64,000 bases of DNA, taken from the NCBI RefSeq assembly GCF_035083965.1, contig NC_089722.1, positions 25,355,081 to 25,419,080 on the forward strand, in the 5' to 3' direction. The notes beneath the pieces are model-generated. The model saw only the letters and a program-made list of their open reading frames with translations. It made no database searches and was not told the DNA's origin. The stretch comes from Branchiostoma lanceolatum. Taxonomy: Eukaryota. Below are positions 6,762-21,666 of the stretch, in pieces; within the stretch, counting starts at the first letter, position 1; each line of letters begins with the position of its first letter. The position numbers and the translations under genes are program-made.

Positions 6762-6860
6762 GCCTGGTATCCAAACCTACCATAGGTCGCAAGTCTCTTC
6801 TGTCTATTTGCGGAAAGGACAGATGAGACTCGGGAGCGATAGTAGGTTTGGATACCAGGC
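6762..6860. mobile_element. palindromic MITE (AGCCTGGTATCCAAACC... arms) with 9-bp TSD GTCTTCAAG, in NPHP3-like intron 3
   Basis: 18-bp perfect plus extended imperfect inverted arms. Flanking direct repeat gtcttcaag on both sides. Same terminal sequence family as the element at 21583-21666. Confidence 0.6.
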
Positions 6861-7109
6861 TAGTCTTCAAGCTCTATTTCAGGCTCACTAGGCCTGTAAA
6901 ACAATACAATTAAGTAGAGAAAGTCTGCGTAAAAAGACTGACTTTAATCAAAAGAATACATCCTAGAATACATTCTCTTGTAGTCTTTTAACTTTTGGAT
7001 AATATACTCACTTATGAATCATTCATGGACAAAAATAGAGCACCGTACATGTAGCTAATTAGTATAATTTGAAAAAGCAGTAACATTTTGCTCCACTGCA
7101 TCCTTCCAG

Positions 7110-7243
7110 CTCTGTTCATGATCAGAGATGGGACTTTCCTGGAGTCTGTACCTGAGAAGCATCATAAGGACTTTATCGACATCACACCTGAGGCTCCCTT
7201 CAAGCTCAAGATGCTCAAGAAGATGCTTCAAGACAGATTTGAC
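7110..7243 (+). CDS. NPHP3: NPHP3-like exon 4
   Basis: ttccag|CT..gac|gtatgt. Translation (S)LFMIRDGTFLESVPEKHHKDFIDITPEAPFKLKMLKKMLQDRFD. Confidence 0.7.
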
Positions 7244-7699
7244 GTATGTCACCCATTTGGTGTTTGCAATTGGTGCATGTCAGGTCTTTCTTTTCTTCAA
7301 TGAAAACAAAATCTTGGTCTTTTAAACTACTATAAATGCATTTAAATTCACGGTAGGGAGAAAATGGAGTGTTTGCAATGGTTTGAAATTCGCGTTTGAA
7401 ACAATAGCAGACAAGGGGTTAAGAGGGAAAAAGAATTTGTGGTGGTTTTAAGCTCGCGGCGAAGAGCTCACCGCCAAAACTGCGAACATAAAACCACCAC
7501 AAACATGTTTGCATTTACAGTATTACAATGCTTCTGTATACAGAAGAAAGCCATCAACCTAATTAGAAGTGCCAGTAGGGCCAATCAAGTCAAACACTGA
7601 ACTTCTATTAAAGGTTACAAAAGGTCTTTTGCTAGCAGTACAGTGAAAGAAATTACCTGAAGCTACCAGTGATGCTCACCTGTTCTCACTTCTCCCCAG

Positions 7700-7792
7700 C
7701 CCGACCAGGTGTGCCAGTACCAGTGTGAGGTCGCAGGGGTCAACTCAGAGGGCAGAGTTCAACTCAAGGGGCTGGAGAACTTCAGTCAGAAG
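7700..7792 (+). CDS. NPHP3: NPHP3-like exon 5
   Basis: ccccag|CCC..aag|gtacct. Translation PDQVCQYQCEVAGVNSEGRVQLKGLENFSQK. Confidence 0.65.
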
Positions 7793-8114
7793 GTACCTTA
7801 AAAAGGAAGTTGTACATGTAGTTGAAATGATGATTTGTACATTGCACTCTTTGGAGACAGGAACTTAAGAAGGGGTTATGGTGGGGGGAAGAAAAACAGA
7901 GGCTTGCTTCAGAAATAATAGCAAGACATTTCATTGTAAGAATCTGTACTATTTAGAGTTTTACGAGACTGACAAATGCCTACTATATCTGCATTATGTA
8001 TTGTATTGTACATTTCATACCTGTATCATATTTCATGCTGTAGAATTCATTGGAAGGTACATTTTCTTTACTGAATTTCTATATGTTTATGATTCACCTG
8101 CCTGTGTTTTTCAG

Positions 8115-8207
8115 GTGTTTGAGTTCTTCACCCAGAGAATAGGGGAGCAATACCCACTGGAGGAGGTACAAACAGACCCATATAGACAACAGGAGGAGGC
8201 TCATGAG
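8115..8207 (+). CDS. NPHP3: NPHP3-like exon 6
   Basis: ttttcag|GTG..gag|gtaatg. Translation VFEFFTQRIGEQYPLEEVQTDPYRQQEEAHE. Confidence 0.65.
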
Positions 8208-8560
8208 GTAATGATGGGGGAAATACTACATGTACATCTTTCAGGATGCTTCTTAAGGGAAAGTTAGGGAGGAAGTTTTGCCACAGCTCTTAATGTTTGT
8301 ATGAAAATGTTGGTCATTCTTTTCATGTTCAAATGCTGGGACATGTATTTGCCCTAGCTGACGAAAGAAGACTAAGGCATTTAACAGTTGTACCATTCTA
8401 GATGTGTTCTTCAAGGCTTTTCCTTCACCCTTTACATGTACATAGTACATATATATGTAAGCCATTGGAATTTTCAATAGACTAGCAAATCACACAAAAT
8501 TAATGAATGATTTTTTTTTTAAATTGATTCATTAATCTTTAGGGTGGTCCCTTCAATTAA

Positions 8561-9030
8561 CTACCGTAAAATCCCTATTTACGTACGCACTTTTTAAACT
8601 TTTCAAGTTGCAAGCAGGTGTTCAAGGCTGACGCCAAAGTTGGGAGCATACGTTAGGAGGGGTTCTTCCTCGGAAAAATCGCATATCAGCGTGAGAGTAT
8701 GGTACATCTTAATGCAAATGAAGTGTGGAATGCTACCACACAATCAATCAGTAGTAAAGAATAAATAATACATATACACACTGTATTTAAATTGTTTGAT
8801 ATTTTCCACCCAGAAACATTTTGTCAGTAGGCTTTTAAGTCGGTAAACATCATCGAAAGGATGATCATGTCAACCTCTAACTATCCACAGAAATGCTGGA
8901 GAGGGGGTGCTTACGTTAAGAGGGTTTTTCCCCTGAACGTTTCAGCTCACTGAGTCAGGCCCGTAATCGTCCCCAAATCGGGGGTGCGTACGTTAGGAGG
9001 GCTGCGTACGTAAATAGGAATTTTACGGTA
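8561..9030. mobile_element. MITE (~470 bp) with ~27-bp TIRs taccgtaaaatccctatttacgtacgca, in NPHP3-like intron 6
   Basis: Left TIR 8562-8589, right TIR 9003-9029 (reverse complement matches with 1 mismatch). Internal subrepeats g(c/t)(a/g)tacgttaggagg occur three times. Confidence 0.6.
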
Positions 9031-19283: not shown

Positions 19284-19595
19284 GTAAACCATTTCATTCC
19301 CAGAATACTCTGAGACATATCTAATTATGATGCTAGTAACACATATTTTGTAGGAGATGATTGTGGGGAGGGGGGCGTTCACAACCAAATGTTGATTTTG
19401 AGGGATACCTTGATACCTTGAATAATTTGGGCCTGATAAGTAGCCGTAAGTATCTAACCTTGAGGATATGATACACATATTAAAAGAACCATAGGTTTTG
19501 CAGTAAAAGAAGTTGTTTTTATACCTTTTTAAGGTCCATGCAGTTGAACTTTATTGCACTTTATCTGACCCTAGTATGGTACTAGTAGATACCTC

Positions 19596-20282
19596 ACTAG
19601 GGTATCAGGTCTTTTCGTCCCATAGACGTTTCGTCCTCTAGTCGTTTCGCCCTCGGTATGGATGTTTCGTCCTCGGTATGGATGTTTCGTCCTCGGTATG
19701 GATGTTTCGTCCTCGGTGTGGATGTTTCGTCCTCGGTGTGGATGTTTGGTCATTGAATGACGCTTGTCTCACAATTACAAGTTACTCAATTTTTATCATA
19801 ACAAACAATATCGCCATCTTGGTTGTTTACGCCATCTTGGTTGTTTACGCATGTTGCAAATCGCTCGTGGGCGCCGCCTTTTAGTTTTACAGAGTTTGTA
19901 TGAGTAAATAAGCTGACTAAAATGAAATTTTGACAAGGAAATTGACTGTATGGGACTGTATTTTGAAAAACACTAGGATATTCATGTTGCTAAATTCACT
20001 GATGCCCAAGGCCGACTGGAAGTGTATCTCGGTCAAAGTATGACACGTCTGGAAACGGTAAGTACTTCGCCGGCTTACACTTTAGCTGCCGGAAAATACT
20101 TGTAAGTTGATATTCAATCAAGTATAGAATAATACGTGATAAAAAAGGAGTCATTTAGGGTTTAAATGTTGTTAAATGGGTGGACGAAACTCGGACCCGA
20201 CCTAGAGGACGAAACATCCACAACGGGGACGAAAAGAGGACGAATGATCTATGGGACGAAAATACTAGGAAACGATACCTCT
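19596..20282. mobile_element. foldback-type element with ~100-nt inverted arms (19596-19700 / 20184-20282), internal 20-bp tandem repeats (cctcggtatggatgtttcgt x5, 19651-19750) and a 19-bp direct duplication (19811-19850), in MRPL18 intron 1
   Basis: The reverse complement of 20184-20282 aligns to 19596-19700 (ttttcgtcccatagacgtttcgtcctct vs ttttcgtcccatagatcattcgtcctct). Confidence 0.55.
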
Positions 20283-20548
20283 TCCCTCATGACCTCAATG
20301 AAAAGCGGCATGCATGCCGATTTGAGCTTTTCATTAATAAACAAAGTTTCAAACAACAAGCAAACAAAACAGAATATATAAATGTTAGTGTTATTATCTT
20401 AAAAGATATTATATTTATTTTATTTTATAACATAATGCATGCACAGATAAAATGTAAAAAACTATGTATGTACTAGTACTATACGATATGCACTTGTTTC
20501 CTTACCCACATTTGTTTGCCTACAATGTTCAATTGCAAGTCACTACAG

Positions 20549-20720
20549 TGAGACTGCTAGCTACACAAACCCCACACCACGGTGTGCCGGACACTGAGGA
20601 TAATGACATCATCAGTCCAGACTTCCTCAACCGCAACCCTCGTAACCTGGAGCGGATGGGTCTGGGGAGGAAGGAGAGGGGGTGGAAAACAAGCTGGCCC
20701 AGAAAGGAGTGCTGGCACAG
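20549..20720 (+). CDS. MRPL18: MRPL18 exon 2 (acceptor at 20539 or 20548; both in frame)
   Basis: Translation ..[50 protein letters not shown](R). Compare human MRPL18 [33 protein letters not shown]. Donor acag|gttagc. Confidence 0.75.
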
Positions 20721-21375
20721 GTTAGCTAGGGGCATCAAATCAATAAACGTGCACAGCAAGGAAATAGAAGACAGGAATTTATAAGTTTTATGGAATACAT
20801 ATGATCCATAGATTCCTTTGCAATAGTGGTTCGTCTGTCACTTTTGACGAGGACCGCTGTCATCCATCATTTGGCTGTGTTGTATGTGTCGCATGAGTCC
20901 TCGTGTGGCTCATCCTTTGCAATGGGTTACTTTGCAATCAGCATAATGATTAAGGTCTCTTGCAACAGTTTTGAGAACTGCAGTATGATGTACTACAAGC
21001 ACAATATACTAGTAGTCATGCTTCTCAGACTGCTCTTCCAAGGGTGCCCAAGTACATGTACAGATTTTAAGGAATTCAAACGATTTTTATAGAACACATG
21101 TAGATTTTACGAAATTCACATAATCCTCTACCAAGAGACCTATGAATCTTACGGAATTCATACGAGTTTTACTAATAGCGGTAAGAGGGAAATCACAGAT
21201 ACTGATGACTGTATTTCATCAATGCTCTGCCTTTTTTTATACATTTTTCTAAAATTAGTGCTCAAGTATTCCTGCTCTAAGCAGAATGTGTAATGATCAC
21301 AAGCCTGTAGAAAAAAAGGTAAAGGACAGGTAACAAAAATAAGTAACATGTTTATGAATTATTTTTCACTCCAAG

Positions 21376-21495
21376 GTGTCACTTCGTGAAGAGTAACCGT
21401 TACGTGACTGCGTATATTCAGCACCACAACGGCCACATTGTTGCGTCTGCCTCGTCCTTCGAGTGGCCCATAAGGAAACACCTCTATAGCACCAG
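21376..21495 (+). CDS. MRPL18: MRPL18 exon 3
   Basis: Translation (R)CHFVKSNRYVTAYIQHHNGHIVASASSFEWPIRKHLYST(R). Compare human [31 protein letters not shown]. Donor accag|gtaggt. Confidence 0.8.
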
Positions 21496-21582
21496 GTAGG
21501 TTTCCTATAGCTTATTGTGTGAACAATTTTTACTTTTGTGTACCCCCTAGTTGTAGAGTCAAGTATACCAGAATGGCCTGAA

Positions 21583-21666
21583 TTAGCCTGGATGCCAGAC
21601 CCCCAATCTTTGAAATATCTATTGTGTAGATATTTTAGAGATTGGGGGTCTGGCATCCAGGCTAGG
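21583..21666. mobile_element. palindromic MITE (TAGCCTGGATGCCAGACCCCCAATCT... arms) with 9-bp TSD GGCCTGAAT, in MRPL18 intron 3
   Basis: Near-perfect ~40-nt inverted arms with a 5-nt loop, and flanking direct repeat ggcctgaat. The terminal AGCCTGG(T/A)T(C/G)CCA(A/G)ACC matches the 6762 element. Confidence 0.6.

Follow-up and report, generated by a model that had tools for sequence, protein, structure and literature searches.

Elements A and B are two short palindromes located in introns of two different genes within a 64-kb window (the whole stretch of DNA that was analyzed). We consider it very probable that they are non-autonomous MITEs derived from DNA transposons of AcademH, the lineage of the Academ superfamily that encodes a helicase, residing in a cephalochordate (Branchiostoma-like) genome.

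Structure and boundaries of the two elements

The features that define both elements and their host introns are listed in Table 1. The original prediction described two palindromic elements flanked by 9-bp direct repeats, and the arms, the folds and the flanks confirm that both are present; their positions were approximately right, although the boundaries 6762-6860 and 21583-21666 had to be replaced by those given in the table. The outer 21 nt of the arms of element A exhibit perfect complementarity. As single-stranded DNA, element A folds with -35.5 kcal/mol (z-score -10.7 against shuffled sequences) and element B with -39.4 kcal/mol (z-score -14.5), while the RNA fold of element A reaches approximately -64 kcal/mol on either strand. 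Both elements show the structural characteristics of MITEs, i.e. they are short and non-coding, and combine an inverted repeat and a loop with a target site duplication (TSD); the translations of their open frames yielded no match in the protein database. The view that they are miniature, non-coding derivatives of DNA transposons with TIRs and 9-bp TSDs is supported.

Table 1. Positions of elements A and B, their flanking duplications and their host introns in the window
Feature	Position	Strand	Size	Description
Element A	6760-6862	.	103 bp	very probable AcademH-type MITE, palindromic (inverted repeat and fold)
Arms of element A	6760-6804 and 6818-6862		45 nt each	87% complementary; loop 6805-6817, 13 nt
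TSD left of element A	6751-6759	.	9 nt	GTCTTCAAG, exact direct repeat, directly adjoins the inverted-repeat end
TSD right of element A	6863-6871	.	9 nt	GTCTTCAAG, exact match to 6751-6759
Host intron of element A	6730-7109	+	380 nt	DUF4062-NACHT-TPR ("NPHP3-like") gene; donor GTAAGT at 6730, acceptor AG at 7108-7109
Element B	21584-21664	.	81 bp	very probable AcademH-type MITE, palindromic (inverted repeat and fold)
Arms of element B	21584-21621 and 21627-21664		38 nt each	95% complementary; loop 21622-21626, 5 nt
TSD left of element B	21575-21583	.	9 nt	GGCCTGAAT, exact match to 21665-21673
TSD right of element B	21665-21673	.	9 nt	GGCCTGAAT, exact direct repeat
Host intron of element B	21496-21769	+	274 nt	MRPL18; donor GT at 21496 (GTAGGT), acceptor AG at 21768-21769

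Common termini and relation of the two elements

The octamer TAGCCTGG opens both elements and its reverse complement CCAGGCTA closes them; within the window this octamer occurs only at their four termini. The degenerate 18-nt terminal motif, which reads TAGCCTGGTATCCAAACC in element A and TAGCCTGGATGCCAGACC in element B (14/18 positions identical), has four matches in the window, compared to 0.18 expected by chance; the terminal consensus proposed earlier was slightly wrong for element A. Beyond this, the similarity fades rapidly: the identity is exact only over the terminal 8 nt and amounts to 17/24 over the first 24 nt, and the interiors are unrelated to one another. The elements must hence be assigned to two families, and not regarded as two copies of a single one, as had been claimed. 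Judging from their sequences, A and B represent two MITE families within a single lineage, with a common end that is the putative site of transposase recognition.

Each element is present in one copy in the window. When the window was searched by blastn-short for diverged copies and for copies with one end only, using the elements whole and in halves, only the self matches were reported, and the pattern TAGCCTGGNNNCCA-N{40,70}-TGGNNNCCAGGCTA had no matches among metagenome, prokaryote-genome and viral contigs, collections that contain no amphioxus DNA.

The probability that chance palindromes or an assembly artefact could explain both elements is practically nil. For each element, an exact 9-mer flank would arise by chance with a probability of 4^-9, and here two such repeats were found independently; when the window was scanned for inverted repeats that lie between direct repeats, A and B were the only ones with a flank longer than 4 bp. 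The identity of the 8-nt ends at 4/4 termini, the z-scores of both folds and the match of the element ends to published transposons (see below) argue against this explanation as well, which we consider ruled out by the statistics of flanks, termini and folds. Several other MITE-like palindromes are present in the window; they have different ends and flanking repeats of only 2-5 bp.

Similarity to AcademH transposons

The survey of the Academ superfamily by Kojima (Kojima 2020, PMC7165386) contains three entries from Branchiostoma, namely AcademH-1_BBe (published ends: tagcctgggtatccagcc... and ...ggctggataccaggcta), AcademH-2_BBe (published 5' end: tagcctgggtgccatcc...) and AcademH-N1_BF (published ends: tagcctggagtcagtcc... 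and ...ggactccaggcta). The octamer TAGCCTGG starts all 9 of the 9 termini compared (4 from the window and 5 published ones from Branchiostoma). The terminal 14 nt of element A (TAGCCTGGTATCCA) are identical to the reverse-complemented 3' end of AcademH-1_BBe (14/14 nt), and the terminus of element B (TAGCCTGGATGCCA) agrees with AcademH-2_BBe (TAGCCTGGGTGCCA) at 13/14 positions, the published ends having been taken from machine-extracted PDF text with small indel noise. When the published ends were compared with the window by blastn-short, the two ends of element A were reported, the other matches being weak (11-16 nt, E-value 0.07-0.95) and at chance level. At 21074-21086, the window matched a subterminal motif of AcademH-1_BBe over 13 nt; this match could not be extended and was judged to be due to chance. 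Past the terminal ~14-18 nt, comparison with shuffled sequences revealed no significant similarity of A or B to the three published elements (interiors versus published subterminal regions: p-value 0.03-0.86 in 20 comparisons, none significant in view of the number of tests).

This relationship is corroborated by other features of the ends. AcademH elements are flanked by TSDs of 9 or 10 bp, in contrast to 3-4 bp in AcademX (Kojima 2020, PMC7165386), and the 9-bp TSDs of A and B fit this rule; their termini (T...A) also agree with the 5' pyrimidine and 3' purine of Academ elements. Termini starting with TAGC are found in AcademHP elements from Saccoglossus and sea urchin too, and the assignment of non-autonomous elements to AcademH by the similarity of their terminal regions to characterized families follows the practice of the same survey (PMC7165386). 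In the literature on AcademH after this survey we found no work dealing with amphioxus. The original prediction of an undescribed transposon family thus has to be modified: A and B represent families of a known lineage and not a new kind of element, their termini and TSDs being those of published AcademH transposons.

Other superfamilies were considered on the grounds of TSD length. A duplication of 9 bp would also fit Mutator/MuDR elements (relatives of MuDR/IS256 have TSDs of 4-10 bp, and 9 bp is the length usually given for MULEs), and MULE-derived MITEs resemble A and B in the TSD, the TIRs and the lack of coding sequence. The termini of A and B, however, match those of elements from the same genus that have been classified as AcademH by their encoded transposase and helicase. 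We know of no MULE with such termini, none was found in the literature searched, and we regard membership in this superfamily as very unlikely. Still smaller is the probability that A and B are MITEs of Merlin, with a compatible TSD of 8 or 9 bp, or of hAT, with a TSD of 8 bp accompanied by one chance base; in the latter case the TAG... start loosely resembles hAT ends. Merlin TIRs exhibit a conserved terminal 5'-GG, while A and B start with TA, for which reason Merlin was ruled out. Under hAT, each of the two elements would need one extra chance flanking base (1/16) and the ends would become asymmetric; this superfamily was rejected as well, given the exact 9-bp TSDs of both elements versus 8 bp (rarely 5-6 bp) in hAT. 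The positive match to AcademH termini argues against both Merlin and hAT.

Proposed origin of the palindromes

The 5' end can be aligned with the 3' end over ~95 nt in AcademH-1_BBe and over ~58 nt in AcademH-N1_BF, i.e. these transposons possess long TIRs. An internally deleted derivative that retained only the two TIRs of such a parent (~58-95 nt) would form an almost perfect palindrome around a very small loop, so the hairpin shape of A and B may be a by-product of their origin. We propose that they descend from two different parent families, which would account for a common extreme terminus and a common TSD length in elements that have nothing in common inside. By analogy to other cut-and-paste transposons with DDE transposases, mobilization would occur in trans: an autonomous element at another genomic site would supply an AcademH DDE transposase, which would recognize the outermost 14-20 bp conserved at the ends (TAGCCTGG..CCA..CC), cut the element out and reinsert it at staggered cuts 9 bp apart, the repair of the gaps giving rise to the 9-bp TSD.

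A and B share with the Branchiostoma AcademH elements the terminal octamer (TAGCCTGG...CCAGGCTA), the 5' pyrimidine and 3' purine, a TSD length that defines the lineage (9 bp in A and B) and the animal genus or group. The latter are, however, 1.7-9.8 kb long, known from single-copy representatives and autonomous in two cases, whereas A and B comprise 103 and 81 bp of inverted repeat only and probably stem from another species of Branchiostoma. Short derivatives that retain AcademH ends and 9-bp TSDs, as A and B do, have been reported from other phyla (AcademH-N3_MiYe from scallop: 123 bp, 111 copies; an internally deleted derivative of AcademHP-1_SP from sea urchin: KN914055.1, 130122-130171, listed span 50 bp; DNA9-type Repbase entries re-classified as AcademH-N); their sequences differ from those of A and B, and the survey lists no such short family from amphioxus (Kojima 2020, PMC7165386). 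MITEs make up ~6.7% of amphioxus genomes, and those described (the LanceleTn families, ATE-1 and the MITE-Hunter libraries of the three-genome paper) are small, palindromic, non-coding and intronic, like A and B.

Host genes and possible functions

The host of element A exhibits a match to Pfam DUF4062, its homologs carry NACHT and TPR domains, and the translations of its exons align with the homolog from Ptychodera flava across the junction (between NPN and SLFM). This gene has no Branchiostoma match, the best one being that from P. flava (55%). The exons flanking element B match MRPL18/uL18m and Pfam Ribosomal_L18p, and are identical to the Branchiostoma floridae sequence (C3YD..) at 86/99 positions (87%), with a gene-model artefact left out. 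Additionally, the window contains a match to the amphioxus miRNA family mir-2060 of Rfam (49024-49117, above the gathering score), and both findings point to a cephalochordate as the source of the window.

Element A starts 30 nt past the GT donor of its host intron and element B 88 nt past that of MRPL18, in agreement with the ~30 and ~90 bp estimated before. The closeness to exons, which had been thought noteworthy, follows from the shortness of the introns (268 and 184 nt before the insertion), in which no insertion would lie farther than a few dozen to ~100 nt from an exon.

A transposon origin would be compatible with an acquired function, either as precursors of small RNAs (miRNA, mirtron-like or endo-siRNA) or as modulators of splicing, but we find such a role quite unlikely. 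If transcribed with the host introns, the RNA of either strand would form a near-perfect stem of 38-45 bp (-62 to -71 kcal/mol), and miRNA genes derived from MITEs are known in other animals, e.g. human mir-548 from Made1, also a palindromic intronic MITE capable of producing a long hairpin RNA. Unlike mir-548, A and B show no sign of processing and no Rfam family at threshold: no family of Rfam 15 reached its gathering score (best scores: A, 31.9 bits, gathering 98; B, 51.7 bits, gathering 100), and the sub-threshold matches, on both strands and to many unrelated mir families, are those of generic hairpins. Membership in a known miRNA family was rejected on these thresholds. Precursors of miRNAs that are processed by Drosha and Dicer do not typically combine loops of 5 and 13 nt with long stems that pair almost perfectly. 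15-mers of the arms occur in no paper of the literature searched. In B. lanceolatum, a wide-ranging survey of small RNAs reported miRNAs and no candidate siRNA populations (PMC6396948). As to splicing, both donors retain an intact consensus and lie outside the hairpins, 21 nt (GTAAGT) and 79 nt (GTAGGT) from the duplicated target sites, thus the hairpins do not sequester them.

A further variant, in which A and B belong to uncatalogued, high-copy and recently active families of ultra-short, TIR-only AcademH MITEs of cephalochordates whose intronic copies are processed into small RNAs (hairpin siRNA or miRNA-like), is similarly improbable; if true, regulatory hairpins would still be arising from AcademH in a chordate with no detected endogenous siRNAs. 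We found no evidence for an effect of either element on MRPL18 or the NACHT-TPR gene, and in their short introns A and B are probably neutral passengers.

Implications

A and B are ordinary miniature derivatives of a described lineage, without sign of a special function. The value of this assignment for annotation is that two intronic hairpins are placed in the defined lineage AcademH and not in a new class, and that their palindromic shape receives a simple structural explanation, as derivatives reduced to the TIRs would look this way if the parents had long TIRs. It also calls for caution with predictors of miRNAs and hairpins, as loci of this kind are transposon ends. In the genus Branchiostoma AcademH has so far been known only from single-copy representatives, to which A and B would be a modest addition. 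The intact 9-bp TSDs of both elements, together with the 95% identity of the arms of element B, suggest fairly recent activity of AcademH in a cephalochordate.

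Structure of the elements

Two compact palindromic elements, element A in an intron of an NPHP3-like gene and element B in an intron of MRPL18, carry flanking 9-bp direct repeats, as confirmed by direct reading and a repeat finder. The original prediction had placed them at the right loci, with positions 1-2 nt off, and its terminal consensus needs a slight correction for element A: the ends read TAGCCTGGTATCCAAACC in A and TAGCCTGGATGCCAGACC in B. No other inverted repeat with a direct-repeat flank >4 bp came out of a generic scan of the window, and in the whole 64 kb TAGCCTGG and its complement are confined to their four ends. 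An 18-nt degenerate terminal motif has 4 matches vs 0.18 expected, and the single-strand fold z-scores of the two elements are -10.7 and -14.5. Chance origin is excluded. If empty, the two insertion sites would read ...GTTGTCTTCAAGCTCTA... and ...AATGGCCTGAATCTGTA... The duplications are intact (18/18 nt for each element), which together with the 95% arm identity of element B suggests relatively recent insertion.

Coordinates of the elements, their host introns and other features of the window
Feature	Position	Strand	Description
Element A	6760-6862		103 bp; arms 45 nt, 87% complementary, outer 21 nt perfect; loop 13 nt (repeat finder and direct reading)
Flanking repeat of A	6751-6759 and 6863-6871		GTCTTCAAG
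Host intron of A	6730-7109		380 nt now, 268 nt pre-insertion
Element B	21584-21664		81 bp; arms 38 nt, 95% complementary; loop 5 nt (repeat finder and direct reading)
Flanking repeat of B	21575-21583 and 21665-21673		GGCCTGAAT
Host intron of B	21496-21769		274 nt now, 184 nt pre-insertion
Rfam mir-2060 (amphioxus miRNA family)	49024-49117	+	73.3 bits, E 3e-15, above gathering score
Other MITE-like palindrome	42662-42799		ends TAATGAGAAA...TTTCTCATTA
Other MITE-like palindrome	51226-51294		ends CTTAAGCATACG...CGTATGCTTAAG
Other MITE-like palindromes	52731-52810; 49600-49696; 10835-10954; 2325-2485; 22689-22932		
Tandem repeat	40164-40338		87 bp x 2.0, 92% matches
Tandem repeat	19644-19751		20 bp x 5.4, 96%
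Tandem repeat	30804-30960		21/42 bp x 7.5/3.8; internal inverted repeats too
Putative major-vault-protein-like gene exons	33264-37661	+	by eye from ORF translations

Probable assignment to the AcademH lineage

A duplication of 9 bp leaves Mutator-like elements, Merlin and AcademH as candidates; AcademH is the helicase-encoding lineage of the Academ superfamily, which produces 9- or 10-bp duplications (Kojima 2020, PMC7165386). Merlin termini require 5'-GG (PMC8101967), whereas elements A and B begin with TA, and Merlin was rejected. Three Branchiostoma AcademH elements have been described, with sequences in supplement Data S2 (PMC7165386): AcademH-1_BBe (start tagcctgggtatccagcc..., end ...ggctggataccaggcta), AcademH-2_BBe (start tagcctgggtgccatcc...) and AcademH-N1_BF (start tagcctggagtcagtcc..., end ...ggactccaggcta(c)); the sequences used here come from a machine extraction of the PDF and contain minor indel noise. 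TAGCCTGG stands at the start of each of the nine termini in the comparison, four of them from the window and five from the published elements. Element A is identical to the 3' end of AcademH-1_BBe over 14 nt, while element B shows one mismatch in 14 positions to AcademH-2_BBe, and both have a 5' pyrimidine and a 3' purine, as in the terminal rule of Kojima (PMC7165386). Related AcademHP elements, from Saccoglossus and sea urchin, have TAGCTG... at their start (PMC7165386). These ends recur independently in three transposons already published from two species of Branchiostoma, which establishes that the terminus belongs to a mobile-element lineage. Elements A and B are very probably small AcademH-type MITEs of different families, members of a known lineage; the proposed undescribed transposon family is not supported in the sense of a new kind. 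Past ~18 nt their similarity to the three published elements is not significant, hence the latter are related to the parents of A and B but are not themselves those parents. DNA pattern scans gave 0 matches in prokaryotic, viral and metagenomic contigs, collections with essentially no amphioxus data.

The view of A and B as copies of one family had to be abandoned. The blastn-short alignment between them comprises the terminal 8-mer only; ungapped, 17/24 positions are identical over the first 24 nt and the interiors are unrelated. Judged by this comparison, they are two families with a common end motif and duplication length, which points to a shared transposase type and not to common descent as copies.

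Origin of the palindromic form

Aligning the 5' and 3' ends of a published element with each other gave terminal inverted repeats (TIRs) of ~95 nt for AcademH-1_BBe and ~58 nt for AcademH-N1_BF. A deletion derivative with only such long TIRs left would be a near-perfect 80-200-bp palindrome with a tiny loop, which fits both A and B. Very short AcademH derivatives are known from other animals: one scallop family is 123 bp long and has 111 copies, and an internally deleted sea-urchin element has listed coordinates spanning 50 bp (PMC7165386). We infer that the palindromic shape arose by TIR-only deletion, an origin that requires no functional explanation. If these elements move as other DDE cut-and-paste transposons do, the AcademH transposase would be encoded elsewhere, bind the conserved end motif and cut the element out, and reinsertion would occur at target cuts staggered by 9 bp; a part of the AcademH helicase in generating the long duplications has been proposed by Kojima (PMC7165386).

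The other MITE-like palindromes tabulated for the window have arms of 30-45 nt, short loops, different ends and flanking repeats of just 2-5 bp, and the AcademH terminus was found in none of them.

Host genes and other features

The exons around element B encode MRPL18/uL18m (Pfam Ribosomal_L18p), with Branchiostoma floridae C3YD.. as the closest database match (86/99 identical, excluding a 23-residue retained-intron stretch of the old gene model). These 23 extra residues, SKFSIPAFVYLNIKGVPVLKSCFS, are the equivalent of a translation through the 3' part of the host intron of B (21700-21769); the old model likely has a mis-predicted acceptor. The MRPL18 and mir-2060 matches together mark the window as cephalochordate DNA, probably of a Branchiostoma species other than B. 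floridae. The host gene of element A encodes an N-terminus MGCGAS... and a DUF4062 domain, and its homologues have NACHT and TPR. They are variously named 'TPR repeat-containing protein DDB_G0287407-like', 'telomerase protein component 1-like' and 'nephrocystin-3-like', so 'NPHP3-like' is merely a loose label. In its first coding exon (5546-5802) there is an apparent frameshift at ~5732-5737: MGCGAS...ERDALV and the ELADLRHWCEKRRLHLVECDLRW that follows it are in different frames, while the Ptychodera homologue is unbroken (LVKEVFPDLRVWCEKRR). The pattern fits a deletion of 4 nt, which may be a polymorphism, an assembly indel or the mark of a pseudogene. Between exons of the same gene, a 255-codon stop-free stretch (14305-15069, + strand; 189-aa ORF from the first GTG at 14503) is proline-/arginine-rich and of low complexity, without obvious coding similarity. 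The mir-2060 match falls within a tandem array of ~3 units of 43-44 nt (49026-49174) and adjoins a thrombospondin-type-1-like ORF; several mir-2060 hairpins may be arranged in tandem.

Splice junctions were placed from direct reading and from an alignment with the homologue in Ptychodera flava. Element A starts 30 nt and element B 88 nt downstream of the donor, as originally stated, but in introns this short such proximity to exons has no significance. Both donors are consensus-like and outside the hairpins. Transcribed into RNA, either strand would fold into a stem of 38-45 bp at -62 to -71 kcal/mol. Rfam searches with A and B gave only sub-threshold matches, which fall on both strands and in dozens of unrelated miRNA families, and this is generic hairpin recognition; the arm 15-mers are absent from the searched literature. 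In B. lanceolatum, a small-RNA survey in several stages reported miRNAs and no candidate siRNA populations (PMC6396948). The suggested production of small RNAs or influence on splicing is thus possible in principle but unsupported. Elements A and B are probably ordinary passengers in short introns, in a MITE-rich genome (~6.7% MITEs; PMC10013865).
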